Source: a virus
DNA length: 64,000 nucleotides
Reading direction: 5' to 3' (one strand)
Virus record (IMG/VR): IMGVR_UViG_3300012357_000001
Coordinates: 1-64,000 of that record
Every line of letters begins with the position of its first letter. Position 1 is the first letter of the stretch. Made by a program: the position numbers and the translations under genes. Positions 3,615 to 36,650 of the stretch are shown piece by piece. The notes beneath the pieces are model-generated. The model was not told the origin of the DNA, searched no databases, and saw only the letters and a program-made list of their open reading frames with translations.

Positions 3615-3615
3615 C

Positions 3616-3789
3616 ATGGCGCCGCGGACGGTAGGCAGCATCACGGTCCCGGGCTTCGTCTGGACGATCTTCTGGCTGCTGATCGTGATCCTTCTGATCA
3701 TCCTGGTGGCGTACATCATCCACCAGGCAGGCGGCGGAGCCCTGTCCCTGCACCTCGGGCACTTCTCCTTCGACATCGGTGTGACATGA
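3616..3789 (+). CDS. small membrane protein (57 aa)
   Basis: Translated by hand; below the track size cut-off. One clear TM helix (FVWTIFWLLIVILLIILVAYII). Its TGA overlaps ATG 3786 (ATGA). Confidence 0.4.
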   Translation: MAPRTVGSITVPGFVWTIFWLLIVILLIILVAYIIHQAGGGALSLHLGHFSFDIGVT

Positions 3790-5253: not shown

Positions 5254-5256
5254 GAC

Positions 5257-5742: not shown

Positions 5743-5750
5743 GAGCCGCT

Positions 5751-6200: not shown

Positions 6201-6469
6201 TCCTCTGCGTCGTCAGGCGCTACCTGGGCATCAGCCCGACCGAATGGGACTCGCTGGGCTGGGACTACCAGCAGATGTATCTGGACCACCTCGATGCGGA
6301 TGAGGAGATACCGTTCCACATCGATACGCCGACCCCCGGTGAGTCTTCGGGTGACGTAGGCCCGGCAACCAGGGAGAATGTGGACATCGGTGCGTCCGTG
6401 CTGGACCTTAACGCCATGCGCGCCGATCTCGAGGAGGCACGGAAGAGACGGAGAGGCGGTCCTGACTGA
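6197..6469 (+). CDS. tail assembly chaperone, -1 frame segment (gpT-like): frameshift extension or independently started
   Basis: The -1 frame relative to 5751..6200 is open from 6041 and protein-like (ISPTEWDSLGWDYQQMYLDHLDADEEIPF). GTG 6197 overlaps the upstream stop (GTGA). Ends 1 nt into the tape measure ATG. Confidence 0.5.
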   Translation: MILCVVRRYLGISPTEWDSLGWDYQQMYLDHLDADEEIPFHIDTPTPGESSGDVGPATRENVDIGASVLDLNAMRADLEEARKRRRGGPD

Positions 6470-18825: not shown

Positions 18826-21513
18826 ATGACCATCTCATCCGCCGCGGCCTTCGCCACCTCCACTGGAACCGCTCTCACGACCCAGGCCGTAACCGCGACT
18901 GCGGTGAACGACCTCTGGGTTGTCTTCATAGTCGTCAAGAGCGCGAGTATCACCACCACGGGAGTCTCCGGCGGAGGCGCCACGGGGTGGGTTGACGTAA
19001 CAGGGAACTGGCTGGACGGCACCGGCACGGCGAACGAGTCGGTCTGGATCGGCACCATGAACGCCACCGGTGCCCAGACGATCACCTTCACCTACTCGGG
19101 CAGCGTCACCGGCATCGCCATGGACATCGATGCCCATCCGTTCCACTCGACACTGGCCAGTCCCGTCTGGACTCCAGACGGTTTCGGCACCCTGTCCAAT
19201 GCATCATCGACCACTGTCAGCTTCCCCACGCTGGCGCCGTCGATCGACACCGTGAACGGCGAGCTCTACTGGGGCCACTCCCGTGTTCCGGGCAGCGCGG
19301 GCACGCCGCTGCCCTCCGGATTCGTGGCGAACAGCGACGCCAACGGCAACCCCGAGATGTACAACGTGGCGGTCACGGGGTCCGTGTCCCCGACGATGAC
19401 CCAGACGGCTGGCATATCGAACTCGATTGCCATCATGGTGTCCGACCACCTCGCTCTGGTACCCGCGCAGATGCCGCAGCGCCCCGTACTGCGGATCACC
19501 GGACCGTCGGCGCGGCGGCGTCCCGCACAGCCGCTGTCGTCGTCCATCCCCGTGGTCGCGGTCTCCCTGACGGACTCCGGCGCAGGATCGGACGCTCTCG
19601 CAGTCGCAGTGCCGCTGGCAGACACGGGTGCCGGAGCGGACAGCCTCGCACTCGCGACCGCCGTTGTCGACACCGGCGCGGGAACGGACTCCCTCACCCC
19701 GGCGGTAGCGTTCACCGACTCCGGTACCGCCGCCGACGCACTCGCTCTGTCGGTGCCCCTCGCAGACTCCGGCACGGCCGCGGACACGTCCGCCTTCACG
19801 ATCCTGATCGCCGATACCGGCGCCGGGAGCGACACACTCACCGTGGTCGCAACGATCCCGCTGCCGGACACCGGCGCCGGGTCGGACACGCTTGTCATCA
19901 CAGTGCCTCTAGCCGACGCTGGCACAGGCGCTGACGCGGTCTCAGCCGCTCCCGCTCTGCCTGACTCAGGAACCGGCTCAGACAGCCTCACAGCGCTTGT
20001 GGTGCCCTTGGCTGACTCGGGCACCGCGTCCAACACGATCGTCATCGCGATCGGCCTGGCGGACAGTGGAACCGGCGCCGACTCACTCACCGCCTCGATC
20101 ACCGTGGCACTGTCCGACTCCGGTACGGGCTCCGATGCGCTGTCGGTTACGATCCCCCTGACGGACAGCGGCACCGGCTCGGACACAGCCTCGGTGACCG
20201 CCACAGTGCCGCTGTCCGACACGGGCTCGGCCGCAGACACGGTCGTCATCGGCATCGCGGCGGCCGACTCGGGCACCGCGTCGGACGCTCTCGCGGTCTC
20301 GCCCAAGCTGTCGGACTCCGGCGCAGGCGCCGACACCTTCCTGACCGCCGTCGCCCTGTCCGACGTCGGCGCGGGATCCGACGCTCCCGCGGTCACCGTC
20401 CTGCTCCTCGACTCGGGCACCGGCCTCGACACGCTCGTGATCGGCACGCCGGTCGCCCTGGCGGACGCGGGCGCAGGCTCCGACTCGCTCACGGTCGTCG
20501 CCGCGGTCCCGCTGTCCGACACGGGCACGGGATCAGACGCCTCGGCCGTCGTGGTGCAGATGACGGACACCGGAGCCGGTTCTGACGGCCTCGCGGCCAC
20601 GGTCCTGCTGCCTGACACGGGCACGGCGTCGGACGCGCTCGTTGCCGCCATAGGGCTGTCGGACGGCGGCACCGGGGCGGACGCGACTGCGGTCATGTTC
20701 GGAGTCACGGACACCGGCGTCGGCTCGGACGCCGTTGTGATCGCGTTCCTGCTTCCCGACGCGGGCAGTGCCGCCGACGCACTCGCCCTGTCGGTTCCTC
20801 TTACCGATGCGGGATCGGCCGCGGACGCACTCACACCTGCAGTCGCATTCGTGGTCTCGGGCGCCGGAGCCGACGTCATGGCGATCCCCGCGGCCACAGT
20901 GCTGCTCGGAGACGCCGGTACCGCGGCCGACACCGTTGTGATTGCCCTCCACGTCGCCGACGTCGGTACCGGGGTCGACACCCTGTTCGTTCCGGCGCCG
21001 GGCTTCACCGGCACGGTGACGTGGCGAGCCGGTGCACTGCCGCGCAGATGGCAGACGGCGGCGCAGCGCACGCGATGGGCAGCCGAGCCTGTTGCGGGCA
21101 GATGGACAATAAAGGCGACCCAGCGGTGGGCTGCCAAGCCCGCCAGCGCGAGATGGAAGGCGGTGCTCGTGGCCGGTTTCACGCCGATCGCCTCGATCAG
21201 CCTGCAGGAGATCAACATCCTGTGGACGTCAGACCTGGCCGGTACGGTCGTCGACCCGACGGTCCTGCCGCTCGTCGTGCAGATGGCGTTCCCGGTCTCC
21301 AGTGGCAATCTGAACGCGCCAGCCCAGCCGGTGACCTGGTATGCAGCCAGTTGGCTGCCGTCCACCACCGTCAAGGGGTGGGTCGCTCAGTGCCTGGTGG
21401 GCCCGGGTGGCATGCTGACGCTGACGGCCGGACAGAGCTACGACGTGTGGTCGCAGATCCAGGGGTCACCGGAGATCCCCAAGGTCTTCGCGGGCGTCCA
21501 GCAGGTGTACTGA
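18826..21513 (+). CDS. tail-module protein with about 29 tandem 16-18-aa D-[ST]-G-x-[GA]-x-D repeats
   Basis: 895-aa track ORF. The repeat block spans aa 244-723, with globular N- and C-terminal domains on either side. Confidence 0.8.
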   Translation: MTISSAAAFATSTGTALTTQAVTATAVNDLWVVFIVVKSASITTTGVSGGGATGWVDVTGNWLDGTGTANESVWIGTMNATGAQTITFTYSGSVTGIAMDIDAHPFHSTLASPVWTPDGFGTLSNASSTTVSFPTLAPSIDTVNGELYWGHSRVPGSAGTPLPSGFVANSDANGNPEMYNVAVTGSVSPTMTQTAGISNSIAIMVSDHLALVPAQMPQRPVLRITGPSARRRPAQPLSSSIPVVAVSLTDSGAGSDALAVAVPLADTGAGADSLALATAVVDTGAGTDSLTPAVAFTDSGTAADALALSVPLADSGTAADTSAFTILIADTGAGSDTLTVVATIPLPDTGAGSDTLVITVPLADAGTGADAVSAAPALPDSGTGSDSLTALVVPLADSGTASNTIVIAIGLADSGTGADSLTASITVALSDSGTGSDALSVTIPLTDSGTGSDTASVTATVPLSDTGSAADTVVIGIAAADSGTASDALAVSPKLSDSGAGADTFLTAVALSDVGAGSDAPAVTVLLLDSGTGLDTLVIGTPVALADAGAGSDSLTVVAAVPLSDTGTGSDASAVVVQMTDTGAGSDGLAATVLLPDTGTASDALVAAIGLSDGGTGADATAVMFGVTDTGVGSDAVVIAFLLPDAGSAADALALSVPLTDAGSAADALTPAVAFVVSGAGADVMAIPAATVLLGDAGTAADTVVIALHVADVGTGVDTLFVPAPGFTGTVTWRAGALPRRWQTAAQRTRWAAEPVAGRWTIKATQRWAAKPASARWKAVLVAGFTPIASISLQEINILWTSDLAGTVVDPTVLPLVVQMAFPVSSGNLNAPAQPVTWYAASWLPSTTVKGWVAQCLVGPGGMLTLTAGQSYDVWSQIQGSPEIPKVFAGVQQVY
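19555..20994 (+). repeat. in-frame coding tandem repeats, about 29 units of 48-54 nt
   Basis: Units counted from the translated repeat D-[ST]-G-x-[GA]-x-D-x-L-x-V-x-V/I-P-L-x within 18826..21513. Confidence 0.8.
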
Positions 21514-21842: not shown

Positions 21843-22068
21843 GGAGGATGATTCCGGCCTACTGCAGGAGGGCCGGGATGGGATGCAAGAGGCTACGACC
21901 GCAGAGAGGGTCGCAAAGGAAGCGGTGGCCGAGGCCAAGGCCCGAGAGCCGGAAGTGCAGCGCCTGCTGAAGAGGGTCCGGGAGATGCAGCGGGTGAACC
22001 ACATCGGGGAACGCGTGGCAAAGGCGCTGCGCGACGGATACGAAGGAGAGGGGCAGCATGGTCATTGA
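21814..22068 (+). CDS. hypothetical protein
   Basis: RBS aaggagga at 21801-21808, then ATG 21814 (M55 of track ORF 21652..22068). Confidence 0.45.
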   Translation: MRLRLPWKDKEDDSGLLQEGRDGMQEATTAERVAKEAVAEAKAREPEVQRLLKRVREMQRVNHIGERVAKALRDGYEGEGQHGH

Positions 22069-22426
22069 CCTCCTGAAGTCTGGGTTCTTCGTCGCATTCT
22101 TCTGCTCGGTCGCGTACATCATCGGCTACAGCATCCTCGCCCCCTGGTGGAAAAACCCCTGGGGCCGCGGCATGGTGTCCTTCTCCGCAGCCAGCCAGCT
22201 GCTGCTGCTGCCGACCCTGCTGCACATCACGTTCGGTATCAACTTCAGCAGCGGATTCGCCGCCTGGTACTACATCGTGTCGCTCTACCTGGACGGGCTG
22301 ATCGAGGTATACCGACTCCGATGGGCCTACCGCATCCAGCAGCACGACACCCCGCGCGGACGCAGGCAGAACGAAGTGAACCGGGTCAGGGCAGATCACG
22401 ATGAGAGTGATCCGCTGAACCGTTGA
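22058..22426 (+). CDS. integral membrane protein (3-4 TM helices)
   Basis: Track ORF with several hydrophobic helices. Lies at the end of the tail block, so a holin-like or exclusion role is possible. Confidence 0.6.
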   Translation: MVIDLLKSGFFVAFFCSVAYIIGYSILAPWWKNPWGRGMVSFSAASQLLLLPTLLHITFGINFSSGFAAWYYIVSLYLDGLIEVYRLRWAYRIQQHDTPRGRRQNEVNRVRADHDESDPLNR

Positions 22427-22873: not shown

Positions 22874-22943
22874 GCTCCCCGGGCGGGTCTCGAACCCGCT
22901 CCCTCCGCGGCGCGCACCGCTTCGGGCCTCCAACTGCCGGGGA
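22874..22943 (-). other. tRNA-like element (acceptor stem + T arm, no canonical anticodon arm)
   Basis: On the - strand, TCCCCGG...GCGGG-TTCGAGA-CCCGC-CCGGGGA-G: a 7-bp acceptor pairing and a 5-bp T stem with a TTCGAGA loop. Lies between convergent genes. Confidence 0.4.
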
Positions 22944-22957: not shown

Positions 22958-23935
22958 TTACAGGGCACCCTGTTCGACCAGGTGCTCCCTGACCATGGCG
23001 TAATTGTCCGCGATGGCGTCCAACTCCACCCGCTCTCGTCCTTCGCGGTCTAGACGCACCTGGCGCAGGTCGTCGTCCAGGTGCTCGCGGATCTTCCCGT
23101 CCACCAGGTCGGTCAGCACCTGGGGCTCCAGCGCGTCCAGCTCCCAGCAGTCGGTACCGTACTGCTCGACGTAGCCGTCGAACCGGCTGTCGGTGGCCTT
23201 GGCGTAGTTGGGCGGCGGGTTGTACTGCTCAACCTGGTCCATCGTCAGCGCGATGCGCTCGACGTAGCACCGGCTGCCGAACAGTGCCAGCCGCTCCTGG
23301 ATGTCCCGGGGGATGTCGAGCCCGGTCGGGTCGTGGTCGCCCAGGTACAGGATCCGGGTCTTCACGCTGTCCCGCTCGAACCTCTTCAGCCGCAGGGCGG
23401 CGTCGTGGATCAGCGAGTGCGAGGGCGAGCCCTTGCACGCGGTGTAGCTGACGTCCAGCGGCGCCGCCGCACGGGCGATGACGTCGACCAGCGCGTCCTT
23501 CTCCACCCAGGCCTCCACGTGCTCGGGCTGGCCGTCCCAGTGGGTGATGCCGTACTGCTGCGCGATCGAGTTGACCGCACGCTCGGGGCTGGACCATCCG
23601 AAGTCGCCACCGGCCGACGCCCGGCCGCGGTCCTCGATGTGGTCCCAGTCGACGAGGCCGGAGACACGGCCGTCGGCGATCAGGTCGCCGAGCCACTTGT
23701 AATTCTGCTGGCAGTTCTTGGTGCCGGTGCCGTCCGGGTTGCCGGGGGTCCGCTTGCCAGCGGTGAAGTAGCGCTCATCGGGGAACGCGTCGGTGGCGAT
23801 GAACCGGTAGTAGAGCTGGCGCAGCGTCAGCCGCAGCCCCTGGTCCGCATACTGGTCGCAGATAGCGTCGGCGGCCTGCACGACCGCCAGTCCGGCGGGG
23901 GTGAACGACCGCATCTCATATCGGATCTTGCTCAT
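22958..23935 (-). CDS. Spo11 / topoisomerase VI subunit A-like protein (5Y-CAP + Toprim), orphan
   Basis: Three motifs in canonical order: LTLRQLYYRF (aa 37-46), AWVEKDALV (aa 142-150) and YLGDHDPTGLDI (aa 197-208). Start-associated motif at 23942-23953. Confidence 0.7.
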   Translation of the reverse strand: MSKIRYEMRSFTPAGLAVVQAADAICDQYADQGLRLTLRQLYYRFIATDAFPDERYFTAGKRTPGNPDGTGTKNCQQNYKWLGDLIADGRVSGLVDWDHIEDRGRASAGGDFGWSSPERAVNSIAQQYGITHWDGQPEHVEAWVEKDALVDVIARAAAPLDVSYTACKGSPSHSLIHDAALRLKRFERDSVKTRILYLGDHDPTGLDIPRDIQERLALFGSRCYVERIALTMDQVEQYNPPPNYAKATDSRFDGYVEQYGTDCWELDALEPQVLTDLVDGKIREHLDDDLRQVRLDREGRERVELDAIADNYAMVREHLVEQGAL

Positions 23936-25273: not shown

Positions 25274-26530
25274 TTATCGCCGGACGGAGACGAGCTCCAG
25301 GGCGGGAACCGCGAGGCGCTCGACCTCGTAGGCCCGGTCCGGGTCCTCCAGCGTCTGCGCGAAGGCGGTGATCGCGTTGGCGACACCGCCAGCGGTCGGC
25401 TGGCCGGACAGGATGAAGAAGTCGAGGACCGACTTCGACTCGTCGGCGGTGAAGCCGAGTCCGGTGCAGACCTTCGGCACGACCTCGGTCGGGCTGGCGA
25501 TCGTGACGGCGGCCTTCTCCTCGAAGCCCGTGATCATGCTGGCCAGGTAGTCGACGGTCAGCCACTGCGAGACCGCGTCGGAGGTCTCCGACTTGATCAG
25601 CTGACCGGCCGCGCGGACCGTGCCCAGCGAGGGGCGGATGACGCCCTCGGACAGGACGCGGCCGAGGTGGACCTTGCGGATGCCCTTGCGGACGTCGGTC
25701 CAGCCGTTGGTGCAGCGGACCAGGCAGACCACGGGGGTCAGGTTGTAGGCGCCGGAGCCGGTCTCGGAGTTGTCGAAGTCCAGGCCCATGTAGGCCAGGG
25801 GCTCGTCGCCGTGGTTGAAGATGTGGTGGTCGCCGTACTGGCGGCGCAGCGCGGTCAGGTCGCGGTGTCCGGCGCGGCGCGGGCCGTTGTCGGTGCCGCC
25901 GCTGCCGTCGAACGGGCTGCGGTAGCCGTCCAGCAGGCCCTCGGCGCGGGCGTAGACCTCGGGGAACTCGAACCGGACGCGCATCCGGGTCTCGCTCAGG
26001 TCCGAGACGTTGACGATCGGCTGCACACCGGCGGCCTGGATGCCCTGCGTGACGGCCATCAGCATGTCGAGGTTGTCCATCGACAGGTTGAACCGGTCGG
26101 ACAGGAACGCGCGGGCCACACCGGGCTCGCCAGCGTCGCCGCGGAACAGCCGCAGCAGGAAGCTGCGGTCGTCGGCCGCGTGCAGCAGGGTGCCGTCGGC
26201 GCCCTTGTTGCCGTGCAGCCATCCGTTGACGTTGCCGTCGATCAGGTCGTTGCGGCCCGCCTCGCGCAGCTTGCGGAAGTAGGTCGTGCCGATGCCCAGC
26301 TTGTCGGCCAGACCGCGGTCGGCGATGTCCGTGAGCGAGTAGGTGCCCGCCGCGGAGGTGACGCCCTCCTCGGTGACCTCGGCGACGGTGCTGGCGACCA
26401 CGAGCTGGCCGTTGCGGCTCCAGACCGAGCGGGCCGGGGCCACGACGTCGAGCTTGTGCGCCTTCTGCGAGTTGAGGATCTCGAGCAGTTCGGCGGCGGA
26501 GGCGTTGCGGGCGGTGAGCTGTACGGTCAT
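25274..26530 (-). CDS. DUF932-like phage/plasmid protein
   Basis: ATG 26530 is M27 of the track ORF. The pattern LDFDNSETGSGAY...VVCLVRCTNGW matches my recollection of the DUF932 core. Confidence 0.65.
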   Translation of the reverse strand: MTVQLTARNASAAELLEILNSQKAHKLDVVAPARSVWSRNGQLVVASTVAEVTEEGVTSAAGTYSLTDIADRGLADKLGIGTTYFRKLREAGRNDLIDGNVNGWLHGNKGADGTLLHAADDRSFLLRLFRGDAGEPGVARAFLSDRFNLSMDNLDMLMAVTQGIQAAGVQPIVNVSDLSETRMRVRFEFPEVYARAEGLLDGYRSPFDGSGGTDNGPRRAGHRDLTALRRQYGDHHIFNHGDEPLAYMGLDFDNSETGSGAYNLTPVVCLVRCTNGWTDVRKGIRKVHLGRVLSEGVIRPSLGTVRAAGQLIKSETSDAVSQWLTVDYLASMITGFEEKAAVTIASPTEVVPKVCTGLGFTADESKSVLDFFILSGQPTAGGVANAITAFAQTLEDPDRAYEVERLAVPALELVSVRR

Positions 26531-26569
26531 CTTCCCTGATCTCCTTGATCCGGGGCCGCTGCGGCCCCA

Positions 26570-26590
26570 CTGATGACAACTATACCCGGT
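26570..26590 (-). promoter_or_regulatory. class-1 promoter-like box (ACCGGGTATAGTTGTCATCAG)
   Basis: One of three identical 21-bp copies. -10-like TATAGT. 40 nt upstream of ATG 26530, with a 7-bp-stem hairpin (26552-26568) in the leader. Confidence 0.6.
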
Positions 26591-26669
26591 CTTCGGCCGT
26601 TCACACAAGCTGGCACGCAGAAAGGGCCCTCTGCGGCGGCAGATGACCCTTCCCGCACCCCGTTAGTAC

Positions 26670-26746: not shown

Positions 26747-27790
26747 CTACTGGGCCCAGGGCGGCGGCGGCGCGCCCTGCGGTCCGGCCTGCTCGGGCTG
26801 CGCCGGAGCGCCCTGGCCGTTCCACGGCGCGTTGCCGGGGGCGGGCGCAGGCGCGGGCGCCGCGGGCTGCTGCGGCTGGGGCTGGCCCTGCTGCGGCTGC
26901 TGCGGTGCCTGCTGCTGCGGCTGGTAGGGCGCCGGGGCCGCGCCGTAGCCCGGGGCGGGCTGCTGCGGCTGCTGCATCGGGTTCCACGGCTGCGCGGCGG
27001 GCGCCTGCGGTGCCTGCTGCGGAGTCGCCCACGGCGGGACAGCCGCGTTGCCGCCGGGCTGGGCACCGTTGGGGGCTGCTGCAGGCGCTGGCGTCTGCCA
27101 CGGGTCAACGGGCGCGGGCGCTGCGGCGGGCTGCTGCGGGCCTCCGTAGCCCGGCTGGGGCTGCTGCCACGGATCCTGCTGCGGCGGCGCGTAGCTCGGC
27201 TGGCTGTAGTCCTGCTGCGGCTGCGGGGCGTAGCCCTGCTGCGGCTGCGCGTACTGAGGCTGCGCGTACTGCGGCTGCTGAAACGGCGACTGCCCGTAGC
27301 CGGGCTGCTGCCCATAGCCGGGCATCGCGGCGGGCTGCTGCGGCTGGTAGGTCGGCCAGGTCGTCGGGGCGCCGGGGCGCGGCGGGCGCACGTCGCGCAC
27401 CTTGTTGCGCTGCACGCCCTCGTACTCGTCGAGCACGATCTTCAGCAGCACCGGCTTGCCGACCATCGCCTGTGCGATCTGCTCTTCCGGAGGGTTGCTC
27501 TTGACCCAGTCGGCCGGGATCCCCATGGCCTCCAGGTGCCGGAACATGATCCCGAGCGACTGGGCCGCCGACGGGCCGTCCGTGGTGATCGTCATCGGGA
27601 ACCGGATCTGCGCGCGTCCGGCGTTGGGACCGGTCGTCACGCGGAACCGGACGTCCCACTGTCCCTTGGCGCCGTCCTTGGTCCGGCCCCACGTGCTCGA
27701 CTCGACCACGGCGTCGACCTCATTGGTGTCGTAGACGAAGATCGAGCTGTCGGCCTGGCCGTACAGCGAGTTGAAGTCGTACTGACCCAT
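26747..27790 (-). CDS. ssDNA-binding-like protein with a Pro/Gln-rich tail of about 210 aa
   Basis: Track ORF. Globular N-terminal domain of about 135 aa directly downstream of the Sak4-type ATPase (typical module order), followed by PQ/Y/G low complexity. Confidence 0.55.
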   Translation of the reverse strand: MGQYDFNSLYGQADSSIFVYDTNEVDAVVESSTWGRTKDGAKGQWDVRFRVTTGPNAGRAQIRFPMTITTDGPSAAQSLGIMFRHLEAMGIPADWVKSNPPEEQIAQAMVGKPVLLKIVLDEYEGVQRNKVRDVRPPRPGAPTTWPTYQPQQPAAMPGYGQQPGYGQSPFQQPQYAQPQYAQPQQGYAPQPQQDYSQPSYAPPQQDPWQQPQPGYGGPQQPAAAPAPVDPWQTPAPAAAPNGAQPGGNAAVPPWATPQQAPQAPAAQPWNPMQQPQQPAPGYGAAPAPYQPQQQAPQQPQQGQPQPQQPAAPAPAPAPGNAPWNGQGAPAQPEQAGPQGAPPPPWAQ

Positions 27791-27793
27791 GAT

Positions 27794-28570
27794 CTAGTTC
27801 CTTCTTCCCTGGAGAACCTGCGTGAGCATGGTTTCCGCTGTGAATCCGGGGTGAGAGGGATCCCCGATCTTCATGGTGTAGGGCAGGCGTCCTCCCAGGC
27901 GCTCGCCGGTCTCGTACTGCGGATGCGGGCCGATGAACATCAGCCGGTTGCCGTCCCGCTCGGCCCCGAGATATCCGAGCACGTCCACGTAGTACGGCAG
28001 GTAGTCCTGGGCCTGGCCCTGGACCATCGGGCGCCAGCGGCCCTCCTTCAGGTGCGTACCGGCCACGAAGGTCATCGTCCACATCGGCTTGACCGGGTGT
28101 GTGATCAGGTCGCGGTACTGGCGGACCATCGAGGACACCTGACGGAGCAGCGCGTTCCAGTGGTCCCTCTCGATCTTGCCGTTACCGGCCAGGTCGTCGA
28201 TCACCCGCTGCTGGACCTCGGTGACCGAGTCCATCGAGCAGGAGTTGAACGGGTGCTGGCCGGAGTTCAGGACCCGGTAGGTGGCGGACACCGTCCGTGC
28301 CTCGCGCACGAGCACGATCGCGGTGTCCCAGCTGCCGTCCGGCCGCGGCGGGGGCTCGCGCAGCGGATCCCAGTAGACCTTGCGGGACGGGGTCCAGTAC
28401 GAGGAGCCCTCGACGTCGAGCACGAGGCGCGGCGTCGGGCCGGAGTCGGCGAAGGTGGACTTGCCAGCCTTCGGCAGCCCGTGCACCAGGAACGAGAGTC
28501 CCTGGGCCCTCCGCGGCTGCGGCGTTGCAGGCGCGGGGGCGTGCACCTGAGCGTACTGCTGGGCTGTCAT
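27794..28570 (-). CDS. RecA-like AAA ATPase (Sak4-type recombination protein)
   Basis: Walker A motif HGLPKAGKST, Walker B-like LVLDVEG. Size and the neighbouring SSB and exonuclease genes are typical. Confidence 0.7.
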   Translation of the reverse strand: MTAQQYAQVHAPAPATPQPRRAQGLSFLVHGLPKAGKSTFADSGPTPRLVLDVEGSSYWTPSRKVYWDPLREPPPRPDGSWDTAIVLVREARTVSATYRVLNSGQHPFNSCSMDSVTEVQQRVIDDLAGNGKIERDHWNALLRQVSSMVRQYRDLITHPVKPMWTMTFVAGTHLKEGRWRPMVQGQAQDYLPYYVDVLGYLGAERDGNRLMFIGPHPQYETGERLGGRLPYTMKIGDPSHPGFTAETMLTQVLQGRRN

Positions 28571-28809
28571 CCGACGACCGCGTCCCAGATCGCGAGGCAG
28601 CCGATCCCCATGCCGAACACGAGCGCCAGGGTGAACACCGCGTGGGAGAACGTCGTGATGCTTTCGTTGATCCTCTTGTGCTTGGACTCGCGGATCGCGT
28701 CGCGCTCCGCGATCCTGTTGGCCGTTTCCATGTGACGGGCCGCCTGCTCGCCGAGGATGCCCTCAACGAGGGTGCGCGGGACGCGGGGGGTGTTCGATGA
28801 TTGCTCCAT
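28567..28809 (-). CDS. small C-terminally membrane-anchored protein
   Basis: Track ORF. TM segment AVFTLALVFGMGIGCLAIW. ATGA and TGATG coupling to neighbours. Confidence 0.45.
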   Translation of the reverse strand: MEQSSNTPRVPRTLVEGILGEQAARHMETANRIAERDAIRESKHKRINESITTFSHAVFTLALVFGMGIGCLAIWDAVVG

Positions 28810-29786
28810 CAGACCTTTGCCATCTCTTCCCTGATCGTACGGAGTGCGTCGTCCCTGTAGTACTCGTAGGGGTCCGCCTGCCGGAATCTTCCACTGCGGA
28901 CAAGACTAGCAGACCAGTCGCTGCCGTCGTCCATCATCGGGCAGATTTCTCGGAAAGTGCACCACCACTTGCAGTCGTTCGGGATCTGCGTCGGATACAT
29001 CTGCGAGCGCTGTACCTGGTCGATCACGGCCAGGTCGCCGCCGCTGCGCTGGTATGCGTCGTCGAGCAGCGCGCGTGCCGCCATGATCTGCGACGCCACC
29101 GTCTGCACCTTCAGCAGCGTCGCGTGGACCTCCTCCGGGGTGTAGAGGAACGGGTCCCGCCGGTAGTACGGCGGATTGGCGCGAGCGGTCCGCTTCACCC
29201 TGCGCAGCGTGTCGATCGTGCCCCCCGCGATCTTCGGTCCGTCGGGCGGCGACGCGAGGTGCTGCACCAGCGTGTAGAACCTCATCTGCGGATTCATCCG
29301 CAGCTGCTCGGCGACCTCGAAGTTGGACCCGGTCTTGTAGTCGCGGAACAGCAGCGCGCCGTCGGAGATCCGCTCGGACACCTGGTCCATCCTGGCCCGC
29401 AGCTGCACACCGGGAACGCCCGGCAGGTCGACCCGCACGTCCGTCTCGGTGGCGACGGTCCGGAAGTCGGCGTCCACGCCCTCGGTGGCCAGCCACTCCA
29501 GGTAGCCGGACACCATCGCGTCGGCCATGTCCGCCTCGGTGGCCAGGTCGGACGCAAACTCGGGAGTGCGGTTCGCCTCGATCTTGTATAGCAGCGCGAG
29601 CACCGCGAGCGGGTCGAGCTGGTAGCCGTAGTAGGCCTCCAGCGCGGTGTGTACCCGAGTGCCGAGCTGGCGGGCGCCGGTCGGCGCTTCGTCGGCTGGC
29701 ACGAATCCCAGGTAGTACGTCAGGTACCAGTTCCTGCGGCACCTGGTCCACGCGTAGATCTCGGACTGCGAGATCATCGTCGTCAT
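28809..29786 (-). CDS. PD-(D/E)XK exonuclease, Cas4/RecB-like with Fe-S cysteines
   Basis: DYKTG motif, one N-terminal Cys (WTRCRRNW) and a C-terminal CKWWCTFREIC cluster. Confidence 0.8.
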   Translation of the reverse strand: MTTMISQSEIYAWTRCRRNWYLTYYLGFVPADEAPTGARQLGTRVHTALEAYYGYQLDPLAVLALLYKIEANRTPEFASDLATEADMADAMVSGYLEWLATEGVDADFRTVATETDVRVDLPGVPGVQLRARMDQVSERISDGALLFRDYKTGSNFEVAEQLRMNPQMRFYTLVQHLASPPDGPKIAGGTIDTLRRVKRTARANPPYYRRDPFLYTPEEVHATLLKVQTVASQIMAARALLDDAYQRSGGDLAVIDQVQRSQMYPTQIPNDCKWWCTFREICPMMDDGSDWSASLVRSGRFRQADPYEYYRDDALRTIREEMAKV

Positions 29787-29995
29787 CTCTGCTCTCCCTT
29801 CAACACTTCGCCGTCGATTACCCGGACACGGGGACGTACGGCCACGGACATCTCGCCGCGGGCGATCTCGGCCGACAGCTCGGAGACGAACGGGATCTCG
29901 ATCACGAGTTCGCCGTCGCGGTAGGCGACCTCGACGCCGCTGTAGGGCCGCGGGAAGGTGATCTCCAGCACCGCCCCGGCCTCTGCGCTACTCAC
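29783..29995 (-). CDS. hypothetical protein
   Basis: 70-aa track ORF coupled to both neighbours by overlaps. Confidence 0.45.
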   Translation of the reverse strand: MSSAEAGAVLEITFPRPYSGVEVAYRDGELVIEIPFVSELSAEIARGEMSVAVRPRVRVIDGEVLKGEQR

Positions 29996-31865
29996 CGTCT
30001 CCGCCGATCAGCCAGCGCAGTATGTCGGCGTCGCGGATGACCTCTGCGGCCCGCTCGCCCTTCTCCTCGCCGAGCTGGAAAAGCCGCTCCTCGACCGTTT
30101 TCGGGGTGATGGAGTAGACGACGCGGATGCCGCCCTGCGCCATGCCCTCCTGCCCGATGCGGTCGATGCGGGCGATCTTCTGCTCGCGTGAGCGCCAGCT
30201 CGGATCCGGCTGCATGAAGTAGATCGTGTGCGCCGCAGTGAGCGTGATGGACTCCGCACCGGCCGCGGTGATGAAGATCACCCGGCAGTCGCCTCGTTGG
30301 AACCAGGTGACCGCCTGATCCATGGCGTCCGCGCTCATCCCTCCGACGATCTTGCAGTGCGTGATCTTCTTCACGGCGAGGGCCTTCTCCGCGAGCGCGA
30401 CCAGCTGCGGCGAGTTGGCGGCCACGACCAGCTGGCCATCCTCGTCCTCCAGGAAGTCGAGCAGGTCGGCCACCTTGGATGACGGCGCGACCATCCTGGG
30501 ATTCGCCGTGGTGAACCCGTCGGAGTCCTCCCCCTCGACGACCTCCAGCATGGACGACGCCAGCTGGCACAGGCGGGAGAACGACACCAAGTCGTTCTGC
30601 GCGACGACCAGCCGACCCTCGAGCTCGACCATGGCCTGCTTGGCGATCTTGTCGTAGGTGCGCTTCTGCGCCGGGGCCATGGCCGGGTAGCGGAACACGG
30701 GCTCGAGCCGCTGCGGCAGGAACGGCAGCGCGATGGCCCGCGGGATGCGCCGAATCAACGGCTGCACGAAGCTGTGGAAGGTGTCCGCGCTGTCCGGCCG
30801 GATGCCGAGCACGGTGGACCCGCCGTGGAAGTTGATCTCCTTGACCGCGAACAGGTCCAGGTACCGGCTGCGGGACGGCGCCGTCGCGATGTCGAGACCG
30901 TGCAGCAGCGGCCACAGCTGGCCGATGTTGTCGGCGATCGGGGTCCCCGTGGCCAGCCAGCGGTACTCCGCCTGGTGCAGCAGCCACCACAGCGCGCGGG
31001 TCTGCTTCGAGCGCGCGTCCTGCATCCGGTGCGCCTCATCGGCGATCACCGTGCGCCAGGGTCGTTCGGTCAGGTTCAGATCCTTCGGGTGCACCTCGCA
31101 GCGGGCCGCCGCGATGCCGTCGTCGATGCCGCCGCACACCTTGCACCGGATGAACCGGACGCCGGGGTACGCCTCGAGCCGGGTGTGCGCGCGCACGTTC
31201 GGCCAGCCCACGATCCACACGTCCGCGTCGGTGCGCTCGATCGCCTGGCGTCGGCGCAGCGCCGTGCCGTCCACCACGACCGTGCGCAGCTCCGGAGCCC
31301 AGTTCGCGATCTCGCGCTCCCAGTTGCGGATCGCCGCGACCGTGCACACGACCAGCGCGGGGAAGGGGCCGGAGCCCATGGGCCCGAGCGCGGCGGCGAG
31401 CTGCAGCGCCCGGATCAGCTGCGCGGTCTTGCCCTGGCCCTGCTCGTCGCCGAGGATGCCGCGTCGGCGGTCGGCCAGGTAGGCGGCCCCGCCGCGCTGG
31501 AACGGATAGAGGCGGCGCGGGCGGCCGTCCGGGAACGGGACGCTGGCCTCGTCGAGACCGTCGAGGATCACAGCGACGTCGCCGTCCTCCTGGCACGCGC
31601 GGTCGTCGAGCGCGCCGCGCAGCGACCAGGCGTGCAGCACGTCCTCGTACGCCTCCTTCGACCACGCCTGTAGCTCGGGTCCGCGGTCCAGCTGCTGGCC
31701 GGACCACAGCATGTGCATCGTGACGACCGTCGCCCAGGACAGCGGGGCGTGCCAGGTCCCGGCCTTCTTGTCGAAGTTGCATCCGGGGATCTGGGTGGCC
31801 AGGTGGTTCTCCACCGTGCTGCACCCGATTGTGATCTTGCCGTCGATGATCTCGGTCCACGCCAT
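29988..31865 (-). CDS. SNF2-family helicase
   Basis: ATG 31865 is M23 of the track ORF. Motifs LGDEQGQGKT, VIADEAHRMQ and the C-terminal helicase motif RIDRIGQ. Contains a Cys/His insert, CKVCGG...CEVH. Confidence 0.85.
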   Translation of the reverse strand: MAWTEIIDGKITIGCSTVENHLATQIPGCNFDKKAGTWHAPLSWATVVTMHMLWSGQQLDRGPELQAWSKEAYEDVLHAWSLRGALDDRACQEDGDVAVILDGLDEASVPFPDGRPRRLYPFQRGGAAYLADRRRGILGDEQGQGKTAQLIRALQLAAALGPMGSGPFPALVVCTVAAIRNWEREIANWAPELRTVVVDGTALRRRQAIERTDADVWIVGWPNVRAHTRLEAYPGVRFIRCKVCGGIDDGIAAARCEVHPKDLNLTERPWRTVIADEAHRMQDARSKQTRALWWLLHQAEYRWLATGTPIADNIGQLWPLLHGLDIATAPSRSRYLDLFAVKEINFHGGSTVLGIRPDSADTFHSFVQPLIRRIPRAIALPFLPQRLEPVFRYPAMAPAQKRTYDKIAKQAMVELEGRLVVAQNDLVSFSRLCQLASSMLEVVEGEDSDGFTTANPRMVAPSSKVADLLDFLEDEDGQLVVAANSPQLVALAEKALAVKKITHCKIVGGMSADAMDQAVTWFQRGDCRVIFITAAGAESITLTAAHTIYFMQPDPSWRSREQKIARIDRIGQEGMAQGGIRVVYSITPKTVEERLFQLGEEKGERAAEVIRDADILRWLIGGDGE

Positions 31866-31899
31866 CGTCGTGCCTCTCTTCCCTGATCTTCCGGCTGGC

Positions 31900-32364
31900 C
31901 TACAAGATGTCAGCAGTGTGGAGCGTAGCACGCCAGCTGGTCGGCAGGTTCCCGCTCCGCAGGCACCACGCGACGAGGTGCTGGGCTGCGCTCTGCGCGT
32001 CGTCCTTGCCGGACGGCCACAGGCCCAGGGAGCGCAGCATGGCCGGGCTGGCGGGCTTGCGGTCGTCGGGTGCGGCCGGAGTCAGGATGCGCACGTGGCT
32101 GGCGATGGCCAGGTACCGGGCCACGCCGATCATCTCGATCGTCTGGTGCACCGGCTCCTGCGTGAGCTTGTGCGTCTGCGGGCCGATGTGGAATCTCTCC
32201 CACCCGATCATGCCGCCGTGGTTCGAGTGCTCGCAGAACGATGCGATGAGATCCCCGGCCTGCTGCGGCGGGAACTCGTTGGCCCAGAAGAATCTGCCAT
32301 CCATCAGCGTCGCCAGGCCGGTCATCCCGCCGGGATCGATCCACATCACGGCAGGCGGCAGCAC
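31900..32364 (-). CDS. RuvC-like Holliday junction resolvase
   Basis: N-terminal WIDPGGMTG (the RuvC GIDPG-type motif) and C-terminal DDAQSAAQH. 154 aa. Confidence 0.65.
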   Translation of the reverse strand: MLPPAVMWIDPGGMTGLATLMDGRFFWANEFPPQQAGDLIASFCEHSNHGGMIGWERFHIGPQTHKLTQEPVHQTIEMIGVARYLAIASHVRILTPAAPDDRKPASPAMLRSLGLWPSGKDDAQSAAQHLVAWCLRSGNLPTSWRATLHTADIL

Positions 32365-32889: not shown

Positions 32890-33188
32890 GACAGCACCCC
32901 TCCGATCTTGAAGTCCCTGATGACGTGGACCAGGCGCCACTCCCCCGACTTCAGATCCATGGTGATCTTCACCGGGATGCTGAGCTTCCCGAACACGCCT
33001 GCCGGTGTGCGCGGGTTGGTGGGGTCGCGCAGGATCATGAGTCGGGTGTTCGGGTGCATCTCGATGACCAGGCCCTGCGGCACCCGCTGCGGGTCGCCCA
33101 CCCAGTAGGGGTACTGCTCGTCCAGGTAGTCGGTGATGTCCGCCTCCAGGGACTGGCGCGGGCCGAGCTTGGCGTCCTCTTTCGTCAT
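32886..33188 (-). CDS. hypothetical protein
   Basis: Last 100 codons of track ORF 32886..34907. ATGA overlap with the polymerase stop. Confidence 0.5.
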   Translation of the reverse strand: MTKEDAKLGPRQSLEADITDYLDEQYPYWVGDPQRVPQGLVIEMHPNTRLMILRDPTNPRTPAGVFGKLSIPVKITMDLKSGEWRLVHVIRDFKIGGVLS

Positions 33189-34969
33189 GACTTGATCCAC
33201 CTTTCTTCCAGGATCTTCCCGTCCCAGGTGATCGGCACCTGGTACGTCTCGCGGTCGGTCAGGATCCTGGTCATCGTGGCCAGGGCGTCCTTGGCGATCT
33301 CCTTCGGGAACTCGCCCATCACCTCGTCGTGGATCGTGAGGCGCAGGTACGGGGTGAGCCCGGCCGCGTCCAGCTCGATCACGCCCGTCTTCAGGATCTC
33401 GGCCGAATGGCCCTGGACCTTGTAGTTCAGGCCCGCGTACTCCCTGCCCCGGTCGGTGTAGAGCACCCGGCCCGTCGGCGTGGTCACGAAGCCGCGCCGT
33501 CCGGCGCGCACCTCCGCCTTGCACCGCTGGATGATCTGCTGCATCAGCCGGTCCGGGCCCGGATAGAGCTGGCCGAACGCGTTGTACACCGGCGACGCCT
33601 GCTCGACCGGCACACCGGCCGTCAGCGCCATGCGGTCCAGGCCCGACCCGTAGATCCTCGCGTAGGTGGAGTTCTTGGTCAGCTGGCGGCGCACGTCGGA
33701 CTTCGGGATCTGCTCCGGGTCGGTCTGGTAGATCCGACCGGCCATCAGCCGGAAGAAGTCGATGCCGCTCTCGTCGGCCTGGCGGAACATCTCGATCATG
33801 CCCCGGTCGTTCGAGAAGTGCGCGGTGATGCGCGCCTCGATCTGGTCCGCGTCTACCGTCACGAACGCGTTGCCCGGCCGCGGCCGGTAGGACCCGCGGA
33901 TCATCGGCACGTCCCGGTCGAAGGTCTGCATCGGCGGGTCGGTGACGGACTGCCGGGAGGTGCGCGCCTGGCAGGTGTTGATCGAGGCGTGGATGACGTC
34001 GTCCTCGTCGCGCAGCTCGAGGAACTTGCGCAGGTGCGTGTTGACGATCTTGCCGGTCTTGCGTGCGTAGGCGATGGTCTCGATCAGCTTGCGGTGCTCC
34101 GGATACGTGTTCGAATACAGCTTCAGCGTGTCCTTGTCGGTCGACGCCTGGCCGCCCTTCGTCCACACGGACGTCGGGATGCCGACGGAGTTCAGCGCCC
34201 GTTCGATCTGCGCGGCCGAGTTGACCGAGCTGATGCCGAACTCCTTGTGGAGCCAGGTGGTCGCCTCGCGCTCCCACGCCTCCAGCCGCTCGATCTGCCG
34301 CTCGATGTACGGCACGTCGAGCATCATCCCGGCGTCCATCATGCTCGCGGCGATCCGGGCGGTGGACCTCTCCAAGTCGTACGCCTGGCGGAACTTGGAC
34401 ATGGTCTCCGGCCCGTGCTTGTGCCACAGGTGCGCCGTGAGCACCGGGTCCAGCGCGGCGTACGCGGTGTAGCCCGGATAGTCGAGCGGCACGGTGGCCC
34501 ACGTCCAGTGGTTGGCCGACATCGCCTCCTGCAGGACACGCTCGCCGATCATCGCCCGCGGGTCGATGTCCTGCGCGGCACGCGGCTTCAGGCCGTGCGC
34601 GCCGATCGAGTCGTGCAGGTGGGTCACGAACAGCGTGTCGTGGATCTTCGCCCAGTTCAGCTTCAGACCCAGCTGGCGGTGGATCACCCGCCAGTCGTAG
34701 CCCATGTTGTGCGCGCCGAGTTCGCCGCGGTAGTCCCGCAGGATCTCCAGGATGCCGCCGCCCCACAGCTTCGCCGGGGCGGCCCATCCGGTGTGCATGT
34801 CGCCGATCTGGATCAGGCGGCACTCGTCCCGGTACGGGCTGAGGCCCGACGACTCCGTGTCGAAGCACAGCGGACCCTCGCGCCTCTCCCCGGCCCACCG
34901 CTTGCACTCGGCCAGCTCGTCGATCGAGGTGATCGTGCGCAGGCTGACGCCGTCGAGTACGCCGGTCAC
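33185..34969 (-). CDS. DNA polymerase I (family A) with 3'-5' exonuclease domain
   Basis: Exo motifs FDTES, HNMGYDW and YAALDP. Pol motifs DADQIEARI, RRQLTKNSTYARIYG and IHDEV. GTG 34969 overlaps the upstream stop. Confidence 0.9.
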   Translation of the reverse strand: MTGVLDGVSLRTITSIDELAECKRWAGERREGPLCFDTESSGLSPYRDECRLIQIGDMHTGWAAPAKLWGGGILEILRDYRGELGAHNMGYDWRVIHRQLGLKLNWAKIHDTLFVTHLHDSIGAHGLKPRAAQDIDPRAMIGERVLQEAMSANHWTWATVPLDYPGYTAYAALDPVLTAHLWHKHGPETMSKFRQAYDLERSTARIAASMMDAGMMLDVPYIERQIERLEAWEREATTWLHKEFGISSVNSAAQIERALNSVGIPTSVWTKGGQASTDKDTLKLYSNTYPEHRKLIETIAYARKTGKIVNTHLRKFLELRDEDDVIHASINTCQARTSRQSVTDPPMQTFDRDVPMIRGSYRPRPGNAFVTVDADQIEARITAHFSNDRGMIEMFRQADESGIDFFRLMAGRIYQTDPEQIPKSDVRRQLTKNSTYARIYGSGLDRMALTAGVPVEQASPVYNAFGQLYPGPDRLMQQIIQRCKAEVRAGRRGFVTTPTGRVLYTDRGREYAGLNYKVQGHSAEILKTGVIELDAAGLTPYLRLTIHDEVMGEFPKEIAKDALATMTRILTDRETYQVPITWDGKILEERWIKS

Positions 34970-35475
34970 CGGATGACCGCGGACTGCGGGATCAGCGCGA
35001 GGATCTCCGGGTGCTTGAGGCCCGCGGCGGCGAGCAGCTCGACGACCGGCTGGGACCAGTACGGGGTGCCGGTGCGGCGGTCCATCGTCAGGTCGTCCAC
35101 GACCTGCTTCGCGGTGTCGAGCATGTGCACGTTGTCGCGCGGGATCTCGATGCGCACCGCGGCGTCGGGGTCGAGCGCGGTCGGCTCCGGCGGGCGGCAC
35201 TTCGCGCACGGCTCCGCGTCGCCGAGCAGGTCGGCCGCGGTGCTGCGCACGCCGGGGCGCGCCTGCTTCGGGGTGCGGCACGACGTGTCGATGCGGTGGT
35301 AGAGGACCGACCTCGAGCAGCGGTGCACCACCCACCCGCCGTCCTCGCGGTGGTACAGCGACATCTCGATCCACCGGGCCCGCTCGCCGTCGTCGCTGGT
35401 CACCTCGGCGGCAAGCTCTCCCTCGAAGTCGGCTAGCGTCCTGCCGTGGTGATCCTGGATGGTGACATGTGCCAT
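34966..35475 (-). CDS. hypothetical protein, first gene of the leftward block
   Basis: ATG 35475 is M19 of the track ORF, preceded by TTCAGGGAGGAA. Confidence 0.55.
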   Translation of the reverse strand: MAHVTIQDHHGRTLADFEGELAAEVTSDDGERARWIEMSLYHREDGGWVVHRCSRSVLYHRIDTSCRTPKQARPGVRSTAADLLGDAEPCAKCRPPEPTALDPDAAVRIEIPRDNVHMLDTAKQVVDDLTMDRRTGTPYWSQPVVELLAAAGLKHPEILALIPQSAVIR

Positions 35476-35550: not shown

Positions 35551-36471
35551 ATGGACTGTCACCACCAGGATTTCGACGCAGGGGATCCCATCACCGAGCA
35601 GTACGGGCTGGGCTCCGCCGCGCTGCGCTACCAGGGCCAGGGGTACGCGGTGCTCGCGCTGGCCCGCGGCCGGAAGAAGCCGCACCGGATGCTCGGCGAG
35701 TACGGCGGAGTGCACTGGGCCTCGATCGACGGCCGCGCCGCCAAGTGGTCGTGGTCGCAGGACCGCGCGGCCAACATCGGGGTCGCCTGCGGCTCGCCGT
35801 CCCGGCTGGTCGTGGTCGACCTGGACGTGAAGAACGGGCAGGACGGCCCCGGGCAGCTGACCCGCTTCATGACGGAGCACGGCTTCGGCATCCGGGACGC
35901 CCCCATCGCGGAGACGCCGTCCGGCGGCGTGCACCTGTGGCTGCGCACCCCGCGCGGCATGCGCGTGCAGGGCCGTCCCGGGATCCTGCCGGGCATCGAC
36001 ATCCTCGGGGACGGCAACCTCGTGGTCGCCCCGCCCTCGATGGCGGTGGTCTCCTCGCGCACCGGGGAGTCGGTCCCGATCCCATACCGGTGGTCGCGCG
36101 GCTGCTTCTGCTCGGCGCCGGACGCTCCGCCGTGGCTGCTGGAGTGGGTCGCGTCGGCAGGTCCCGCGACCTCCTCGGGTGGCAGCACGTACAGCGGCGA
36201 CGACGTCGACATCGGCGAGCTGAAGGAGCGCGGCGCGCCGGTCGGCAGCCGGAACCGGGAGCTGTACCGCGCCGCCTGCTCGCTGCACCGCAGGCTGCCG
36301 CCGGACCGTGTGCTCGACGAGCTGCGCGCGATCTGGATGGCCGGGGACGTGTCCGGCATGCCGTGGCGCGAGGTTCTGGTGCTGAGCGAGAGCGCCCGGA
36401 AGTTCATCGACGGACAGCGGGCGCGCGAGTACGCGCTGCGCGACGCGTGGCTCAAGAGGGGGACGCGGTGA
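35551..36471 (+). CDS. primase-polymerase (Prim-Pol) domain protein
   Basis: Motifs VVVDLDVKNG and SGGVHLWL are typical of bifunctional Prim-Pol N-terminal domains. First gene of the rightward block. Confidence 0.75.
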   Translation: MDCHHQDFDAGDPITEQYGLGSAALRYQGQGYAVLALARGRKKPHRMLGEYGGVHWASIDGRAAKWSWSQDRAANIGVACGSPSRLVVVDLDVKNGQDGPGQLTRFMTEHGFGIRDAPIAETPSGGVHLWLRTPRGMRVQGRPGILPGIDILGDGNLVVAPPSMAVVSSRTGESVPIPYRWSRGCFCSAPDAPPWLLEWVASAGPATSSGGSTYSGDDVDIGELKERGAPVGSRNRELYRAACSLHRRLPPDRVLDELRAIWMAGDVSGMPWREVLVLSESARKFIDGQRAREYALRDAWLKRGTR

Positions 36472-36650
36472 GGAGCCGGACGCTGGCGGTCACCGCGTCC
36501 GGCCCCTCGCCGACCCCGGATGCCAGCACTAGGCTGGCACGCACCCCCTCTGGTGGAGAGGGGACGCTCAGAGCATTCCTGGCTGAAAGGAACACTCGGA
36601 TGAACATGCTACTCGACTCGTCCGCGCCCGCGTCAGGGGTGCGCAGGTGA
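36468..36650 (+). CDS. possible 60-aa coupling ORF
   Basis: GTGA overlaps at both ends (Prim-Pol stop and helicase start). Intermediate GC3. Contains two hairpins. Confidence 0.3.
   Translation: MRSRTLAVTASGPSPTPDASTRLARTPSGGEGTLRAFLAERNTRMNMLLDSSAPASGVRR

Follow-up and report, generated by a model that had tools for sequence, protein, structure and literature searches.

Why does a phage encode a protein resembling the DNA-cleaving subunit of a type IIB topoisomerase and nothing resembling its ATPase partner? The question is raised by a gene on the minus strand of a 64,000-nucleotide (nt) stretch of viral DNA, positions 1 to 64,000 of IMG/VR record IMGVR_UViG_3300012357_000001, referred to here as the window. 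An earlier note on this DNA, made from its letters alone, described the gene at 22958-23935 as a stand-alone A subunit of the Mini-A type, lying without a B subunit in a phage replication block. Our analysis supports that description. Judged by its sequence, the gene very probably belongs to the Mini-A family, of which it is a fairly divergent, previously unannotated member; the family is known and extremely common among viruses, and this is not an unusual instance of it. Taken as a whole, the best explanation, which we consider likely, is a Mini-A protein that would cleave DNA by tyrosine/Mg2+ chemistry in a role linked to recombination.

Is there a gene here at all? The open reading frame (ORF) has a GC content at third codon positions of 0.92, which fits the third-position bias that real genes show in a window of 68% GC, and it is a real gene. 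Its parts, with the amino acids (aa) they encode, are as follows.

22958..23935, minus strand: the gene assigned to Mini-A, with an ATG start, 325 aa and a stop codon (ORF and translation).
23531..23935, minus strand: predicted N-terminal domain, aa 1-135, divergent 5Y-CAP-like and winged-helix-like (AlphaFold2 domain model, hhalign).
23801..23830, minus strand: LTLRQLYYRF, aa 36-45, with R39 and the putative catalytic tyrosine motif (translation of the exact coordinates).
23081..23530, minus strand: predicted Toprim domain with a C-terminal elaboration, aa 136-285 (AlphaFold2 model, hhalign).
23486..23512, minus strand: AWVEKDALV, aa 142-150, with the predicted Toprim metal-binding glutamate E145; E145 and K146 are invariant.
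23312..23347, minus strand: YLGDHDPTGLDI, aa 197-208, with the invariant Toprim DxDxxG (D200, D202, G205).
23129..23146, minus strand: WELDAL, aa 264-269, a C-terminal box found specifically in Mini-A (named 'T2BI box' by Takahashi et al.).

Translation of the exact coordinates confirmed the three motifs reported by the earlier note, in their canonical order. The glutamate and DxD motifs lie at the residues given there; the tyrosine motif, for which Y42 and Y43 had been numbered correctly, begins one residue earlier than the reported span of aa 37-46. The tyrosine motif reads R39-Q-L-Y42-Y43 and the aspartate motif D200-H-D202-P-T-G205, while WELDAL, an addition to the motifs described before, lies within D-C-W-E-L-D-A-L-E-P (aa 262-271). 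Across 61 aligned homologs of 47-100% identity, R39, Y42, Y43, E145, K146, D200, D202, P203 and G205 are invariant, as is W264-E-L-D-A268. Among 150 diverse family representatives obtained by clustering at 50% identity, RxxY/FY is kept in 147, [VIL]E[KR] in 148, DxDxxG in 149 and the WELDAL motif in 146. Because the residues are invariant in the 61 homologs and kept in 147-149 of the 150 representatives, the motif matches are not due to chance.

Two homologs of unusual length, P0136 (680 aa) and P0251 (693 aa), contain an intein composed of a Hint domain and a LAGLIDADG homing endonuclease. Both inteins interrupt the protein at one site, which directly precedes the [C/A]WVEK strand, with the Toprim glutamate E145 following three residues later; in window numbering the insertion point is E141|A142, about 23512/23513. 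Inteins tend to occupy conserved functional sites, and the fact that two homologs have inteins inserted right there suggests, as mild extra support, that the [C/A]WVEK strand is functionally critical. Longer family members of 410-461 aa have no recognizable extra Pfam domain.

To which family does the protein belong? Mini-A was defined by Takahashi et al. in 2020 for ~300-aa proteins of bacterial and archaeal viruses and proviruses that have the 5Y-CAP domain's second half with RxxY/FY, followed by a Toprim domain with a glutamate and DxDxxG; they are without a Bergerat-fold partner, and a C-terminal xWELDAL box separates them from Topo VI and Topo VIII (PMC7671362). All of these published traits are present in the window protein, which differs from Mini-A in nothing of kind and is simply a divergent member from an uncultivated 68%-GC soil phage. 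Its 325 aa agree with the 270-360 aa spanned by 122 of the 150 representatives, the RxxY/FY and Toprim motifs are in place, and the C-terminal box is C263-W-E-L-D-A-L269. The gene is virus-encoded, since the window also holds genes for a capsid protein, tail tube, Mu-type portal, MuF, TerL, holin, GH25 lysin, PolA and Prim-Pol. As to the N terminus, the first 32 positions of the Top6A profile are unaligned in the N-domain hhalign comparison, and the next ~40 face a short, gap-interrupted Mini-A tail; the Mini-A helix 13-31 thus stands opposite Top6A ~76-95.

Database searches lead to the same family. In PHROGs the window protein matches phrog_6247, 'DNA topoisomerase', with E=2e-85, and this family includes Salmonella, Pseudomonas, Xylella and Haloarcula virus members; the strongly matched Salmonella, Pseudomonas and Haloarcula virus 'DNA topoisomerase' proteins belong to host groups named in PMC7671362. 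By tblastn, homologs of 25-41% identity were found in 78 deposited phage genomes, among them Pseudomonas NP1/PaMx25-like, Xylella Sano/Salvo, Salmonella Chi-like and Roseobacter RDJL phages, Microbacterium and Curtobacterium phages, and the archaeal virus HCIV-1, some labeled DNA topoisomerase, others DNA binding protein or hypothetical. The phrog_6247 match, the homologs in these 78 phage records and the presence of every published trait are the grounds on which we assign the gene to Mini-A.

The family is very large. A word-indexed search matched at least 4,514 clusters at 90% identity, and an exhaustive profile search returned 11,849 representatives at 50% identity with E<=1e-3 (2,579 of which reach 1e-30), nearly all of 290-350 aa. 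In species-representative genomes there are 351 family loci, from Actinomycetota, Bacillota, Planctomycetota and Chloroflexota to Methanosarcinales and Nanoarchaeota. The window protein shares no more than 41% identity with any annotated phage protein and no more than 46% with any species-representative genome, and no deposited phage closely matches the window DNA. A protein identical to it (P0001) is encoded on 22 contigs from metagenomes or metagenome-assembled genomes, among them a 71.7-kb contig in NCBI assembly GCA_009787515.1 and others in JGI soil metagenomes; every source lists it as unnamed or 'hypothetical'.

In Parabacteroides phage PDS1 (L010), the Mini-A homolog at 4663-5549 is annotated as two overlapping ORFs, gp28 ('DNA topoisomerase', 152 aa) and gp29 ('DNA primase', 143 aa). 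The Toprim match runs 39 codons upstream of the annotated gp29 start, in the gp29 frame, and possible explanations are a split gene, a frameshift or a start called at the wrong place.

How close is this protein to Top6A and Spo11? Authentic Top6A/Spo11 sequences were recovered from the PDB library with a bait query, and 120 full-length Top6A proteins were then gathered. In a first hhalign comparison of an initial Mini-A alignment with four PDB-derived Top6A/Spo11 sequences, only the Toprim region aligned, with a probability of 2%. Deeper profiles were built from 122 diverse Mini-A and 34 Top6A sequences. When these were compared domain by domain, the N domain aligned with Top6A with a score of 25.4 (E=0.0021) and RxxYY in register, against 12.0 for the reversed sequence and 10.4 for a mismatched-domain control. 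The C domain aligned with a score of 23.1 (E=0.009), with the glutamate, DxD and an IALxMDQ/LGxxPSD block in register; E145 falls on the glutamate of Top6A IET/VEK and the DxDxxG region on Top6A TDGDPWS/TDADPYG. An alignment of the tyrosine motif with that of Top6A, to which the earlier note had tied its identification, is thus obtained when single domains are compared. Single-column shuffles gave null scores of 13.1±2.8 (N) and 14.4±2.9 (C), and in neither case did any of 40 reach the observed score. Motif-preserving block-6 shuffles reached it in two of 40 trials for the N domain and one of 40 for the C domain, and the profile support for Top6A is for this reason real but modest. In M. jannaschii Top6A, R99 and the catalytic Y103 have been assigned their roles (PMC7671362); by homology, R39 would be equivalent to R99 and Y43 to Y103.

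Predicted structures were also compared. The full AlphaFold2 model, built from the alignment, has a mean predicted local distance difference test score (pLDDT) of 92.6 and a predicted template-modeling score of 0.78. Its Toprim elements alternate between beta and alpha (E138-144, H147-160, E163-166, H173-188, E192-198, H205-218, E224-229). The N-domain model, residues 1-135, has a pLDDT of 87.7 and helices at 13-31, 38-47, 76-91 and 117-127. Among 350,542 PDB chains, the top Foldseek match of the full model is 9o7o_A, M. mazei Topo VI-A (prob 1.00, E=2e-3); the other matches are generic Toprim or Rossmann-like chains (Topo IV, Topo I, RecR and the small Toprim protein 2i5r) with template-modeling scores (TM-scores) of 0.18-0.25, aligned over no more than the common Toprim core. 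The N-domain model is helical and winged-helix-like, as the identification had implied, and its best TM-scores go to M. jannaschii Top6A (0.37 for 1d3y_B, and 0.32), but these lie below significance. Other weak N-domain matches include the winged-helix DNA-binding domains of Rex, Fur, CymR and ZBP1. A Foldseek comparison of the full model with the viral BFVD library returned nothing significant.

A number of results weigh against kinship with Top6A. In Pfam, the window protein has no match even at E<=10, the TP6A_N and Toprim models included; no Top6A/Spo11 match was found in NCBIfam or in sequence searches of the PDB, the latter with the single sequence and with a 61-sequence profile. When full-length profiles were compared, a single co-linear alignment placed LTLRQLYY opposite STLRELYY, VEK opposite IET and GDHDPTG opposite TDGDPWS, but the reversed-sequence control scored as high (25.7 vs 22.6), and we give this statistic no weight for that reason. 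Takahashi et al. regard the WELDAL region as the equivalent of the T2BI box, xAEQQ/LEIEA in Top6A/SPO11 (PMC7671362), and in the hhalign alignment WELDAL does not fall opposite that box. In structure, the whole-chain TM-score to 9o7o_A is only 0.29 over 181 columns, and the N domain alone has no significant PDB match. With these points set beside the domain-level alignments, we conclude from profile comparison that the Mini-A protein is a genuine but very distant homolog of the type IIB A subunit, with its catalytic elements in register, and that it is not a Top6A/Spo11 ortholog. The in-register homology sustains the earlier label 'Spo11 / topoisomerase VI-A-like', and the word 'Spo11' in it overstates the closeness.

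A second WELDAL-like string, VELDAI, occurs at aa 303-308 (about 23012-23029), in the C-terminal helix of the Mini-A protein. It is this string, not the true WELDAL box, that hhalign pairs with the Top6A T2BI box; VELDAI is unconserved in the family, and its resemblance to WELDAL is probably coincidental. The PDB sequence searches also returned a chemokine and TtrD, which were rejected as noise. All 120 genuine Top6A proteins carry PF04406, PF21180 and PF20768, while none of the homologs of the window protein has a precomputed Pfam domain.

What separates the protein from its better-known relatives? With Top6A and SPO11 it shares the catalytic order, an arginine and tyrosine in a CAP-like helix followed by the Toprim glutamate and DxD, and presumably the chemistry, which by analogy would involve a 5'-phosphotyrosyl intermediate, Mg2+ and dimeric hybrid active sites. 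Compared with Top6A, it has an N terminus shorter by ~50-70 residues and without the B-binding part; it matches neither PF04406 nor PF21180, has WELDAL where they have xAEQQ/LEIEA, is viral instead of chromosomal, and has neither a B subunit nor a partner resembling Top6BL or Rec102-104. Topo VIII is likewise borne on mobile elements, and its A-type core also has no first half of the 5Y-CAP domain. However, the plasmid-borne Topo VIII, with B and A fused or split, has a Bergerat ATPase and a transducer, both absent from the window protein, which also has neither the RVELNAM signature of Topo VIII nor its arginine three residues after the tyrosine.

Could a B subunit be encoded elsewhere? The earlier note saw no GHKL-ATPase ORF in the window, and none was found. 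Pfam scanning of 50 ORFs covering the whole window gave no match to HATPase_c or Topo-VIB, and a six-frame scan for co-linear Bergerat N/G1/G2 motifs gave 0 matches. The Pfam domains detected are PolA, SNF2 helicase, PD-(D/E)XK nuclease, AAA_24, Prim-Pol, MazG-like, DUF4031, DUF6221, GH25 lysin, TerL, Mu-type portal, MuF, and capsid and tail proteins. Nor does a linked B-like ATPase accompany the homologs: there is no GHKL gene in seven annotated phage neighborhoods carrying them or on three further metagenomic contigs with homologs of 47-54% identity. For 80 diverse loci, every ORF of 70 aa or more that lies no farther than 6 kb from the Mini-A gene was then clustered. Mini-A itself was recovered in 80 of the 80, and the commonest neighbor family, sought as a hidden partner, in only 10. 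With no conserved partner in the window or at the loci of its homologs, Mini-A is therefore a self-contained module. Some neighbor clusters in this analysis were widespread; they proved to be spurious ORFs overlapping Mini-A itself and were rejected as partners.

Where does the gene lie, and what might its neighbors say of its role? It is the last gene of a minus-strand replication and recombination block of roughly 12.5 kb, which converges on holin and tail genes. The main genes upstream of it, in order of transcription, are these.

33185-35374, minus strand: PolA, first in transcription order.
29988-31931, minus strand: SNF2 helicase.
28809-29786, minus strand: Cas4-like PD-(D/E)XK exonuclease.
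27794-28570, minus strand: Sak4-like AAA_24 protein.
26747-27790, minus strand: Pro/Gln-rich protein of 347 aa.
25274-26608, minus strand: phrog_1362 protein.

Three small ORFs between the phrog_1362 gene and the end of the block have no family match. A three-gene unit (24832 down to 22958) with its own promoter-like box had been proposed here; what was taken for a unit is merely the tail of the same-strand block, with the supposed unit 39 nt from the gene preceding it and an RBS-like GGGAAG (RBS, ribosome-binding site) in the gap, and between 21500 and 27000 we found neither a sigma-70-like promoter nor an intrinsic terminator. The tRNA-like hairpin said to end the unit is not a tRNA according to ARAGORN and Rfam. 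The hairpin itself exists at 22883-22899 on the minus strand, GCGGG-TTCGAGA-CCCGC, with a perfect 5-bp stem and a 7-nt loop reminiscent of a tRNA T-arm, in the gap where two genes converge with stops at 22958 and 22866. The window contains no second copy of it, and the folding of the region does not surpass that of shuffled sequence (z=+0.40); the hairpin could be a bidirectional terminator without a U-tract or the relic of an attachment site.

The position of the gene varies among other phages. In NP1 it lies between an ATP-dependent ligase and Sak4, in BP12C it adjoins ThyX, in Salvo it is the final gene ahead of the lysis genes, in RDJL Phi 2 it immediately follows PolA, and in PDS1 it is found among NinB, NinG and single-stranded DNA-binding protein (SSB) genes. 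Recombination genes recurring near the homologs are Sak4, Cas4-like exonuclease, RecT, RuvC, NinB/NinG and SSB. In cellular genomes, the recurrent neighbors are prophage early-region genes, namely Cro/CI-type repressors, integrases 3-4 kb upstream, SNF2 helicase, AAA_24, RecT, an RNase T-type exonuclease and an HD protein.

What, then, would the protein do? By analogy with Topo VI-A and SPO11, two copies would form a homodimer with hybrid active sites, in which Y43 of one subunit would attack a phosphodiester positioned by the Mg2+-loaded Toprim domain of the other. The product would be a protein-linked, resealable 5'-phosphotyrosyl break, and the chemistry itself would need no ATPase. We lean, with some reserve, toward such tyrosine/Mg2+ cleavage. 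During infection, transient or programmed breaks in replicating DNA could then serve the adjacent Cas4-like exonuclease and Sak4-like annealing protein and a putative SSB, with recombination-dependent replication or the resolution of replication intermediates as the outcome. That the specific role is to form or reseal breaks for recombination-dependent replication is a speculative suggestion, which we hold only tentatively.

Would cleavage be feasible without a B subunit? Mouse SPO11 dimers alone make covalent double-strand breaks (DSBs) in vitro with no B-like partner (PMC11922746), and the cleavage chemistry is therefore not intrinsically B-dependent. Several points tell against the proposed chemistry and role. 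Biochemical activity is on record for no Mini-A protein, reviews as late as December 2024 give the function as unknown, and we found no functional data on Mini-A in the literature from 2021 onward. The association with recombination genes is loose, the immediate neighbors varying from phage to phage. Furthermore, cleavage by archaeal Topo VI-A may depend on both the B subunit and ATP, in which case activity without a partner is not guaranteed. A bolder version of the proposal makes the Mini-A homodimer a partner-independent, Spo11-like break-maker that would introduce protein-linked DSBs or nicks into replicating phage or host DNA; processing by the phage exonuclease, annealing protein and SSB would then start recombination-dependent replication. 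We judge this version rather unlikely. If true, it would represent a viral counterpart, possibly an ancestor-like form, of meiotic DSB initiation, and a type IIB cleavage core that works in vivo without any B subunit.

Other functions have to be considered. An ATP-independent topoisomerase, whose dimer would cleave and reseal DNA to relax supercoils or unlink replicated phage genomes, would make use of the full set of residues for reversible transesterification, and it would suit a replication module with polymerase and helicase genes adjoining. It is also what the 'DNA topoisomerase' label in PHROGs and many GenBank records implies. That annotation, however, comes from homology only, relaxation activity has been reported for no Mini-A, and the protein has neither an ATPase and transducer to drive strand passage nor a conserved partner, so that we regard this function as unlikely. 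There is a smaller chance that the protein is a replication initiator, which would nick a specific origin and stay covalently on the 5' end in the manner of HUH rolling-circle initiators. Such a role was proposed for the skuldviruses of Asgard archaea, which encode Mini-A and no other recognizable replication protein (bioRxiv 10.1101/2021.07.29.453957), and SPO11 can nick and reseal single strands (PMC11922746). The window phage, in contrast, is already equipped with PolA, Prim-Pol, an SNF2 helicase and proteins for recombination, and with its TerL, portal and tail genes it looks like a terminase-packaged double-stranded DNA siphovirus. No origin-like repeat was noticed beside the gene, where no search for one was made.

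Does the Toprim domain instead mark a hydrolytic nuclease of the MksG/JetD type, degrading host or competitor DNA or countering defence with no covalent tyrosine intermediate? The earlier note had considered placement in another Toprim family (DnaG, OLD or JetD-like). In Pfam, NCBIfam and PADLOC none of these claims the protein, with no match to DnaG-type primase, OLD-family nuclease or RecR, and its sole match in a defence library is a local one to JetD3 in PADLOC, at the DxD (residues 188-215 only, 16 bits, E=0.0015). MksG is indeed an ATP-independent nuclease with a Top6A-like Toprim (PMC10123090), and MksG/JetD resemble Mini-A in being ATPase-free polypeptides and dimeric DNA-cutting modules. 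Yet the JetD match spans just 28 residues. MksG/JetD are without the catalytic tyrosine in the CAP-equivalent domain and act with operon-encoded, SMC-like MksBEF/JetABC (PMC10123090), whereas Mini-A keeps RxxYY in 147 of the 150 representatives and no SMC-like gene lies near it in the window. Its gene, moreover, belongs to a replication block and not to the typical early anti-defence genes, and a nuclease of this kind seems to us quite improbable. Least credible is a non-catalytic DNA-binding protein, or a resemblance to Top6A that is a coincidence of short motifs, which we consider very improbable indeed. The label 'DNA binding protein' is given in BirdInFrench, Fizzles and Nonagon (SEA-PHAGES; Microbacterium and Curtobacterium phages), and none of the statistics for similarity to Top6A is better than weak. 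Against this, thousands of clusters show no variation in the metal-binding and tyrosine residues, four blocks are co-linear with Top6A and score above all 40 single-column shuffles, Top6A ranks first among all the PDB chains searched, and independent published analyses agree.

What would a Mini-A protein with recombination-linked cleavage tell us? As a single gene it adds little, the family having been named in 2019-2020 and having its own PHROG and ~11,800 clusters at 50% identity. Mini-A is the only type IIB cleavage core kept very long in evolution without an ATPase partner. What is newly added is the lack of a conserved neighboring partner in 80 diverse loci, the two members with inteins right at the Toprim glutamate strand, which suggest a functionally critical site, and the recurrence of the gene in phage early, replication and recombination regions. 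If Mini-A is a self-sufficient DNA breaker or resealer, it would throw light on how Topo VI and Spo11 arose and on the control of cleavage without B. Tractable carriers, such as the Pseudomonas NP1/PaMx25, Salmonella Chi-like and Microbacterium cluster phages, are better test systems than an uncultivated soil phage.

The rest of the window holds a few further observations. Within the replication block, the 347-aa protein has a long Pro/Gln/Ala-rich low-complexity C-terminal half and a weak match to phrog_2300 (unknown function), and it occupies the position where related phages encode SSB. The region 35551-38053 (plus strand), divergent from the PolA block, holds a Prim-Pol gene and after it a 468-aa ORF that matches nothing in Pfam or PHROGs and sits where a replicative helicase would be expected. 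Capsid and tail genes fill positions 1-6400, and TerL, Mu-type portal and MuF genes 58114-63105; the gene order looks circularly permuted relative to the usual map. The source contig, at 71.7 kb, is ~8 kb longer than the window and may be a complete or nearly complete phage genome. Lysis functions appear to be split between two loci, because a GH25 muramidase at 54226-55323 (plus strand) lies ~32 kb from the holin (PF23778) and DUF7620 genes at 22058-22426 (plus strand) that follow the tail genes. At the tail-fiber position, 18826-21513 (plus strand), an 895-aa ORF that matches no Pfam family consists mostly of dozens of tandem ~13-14 aa repeats of the type (L/V)xD(S/T)G(T/A)(G/A)xD(A/T/S)L.

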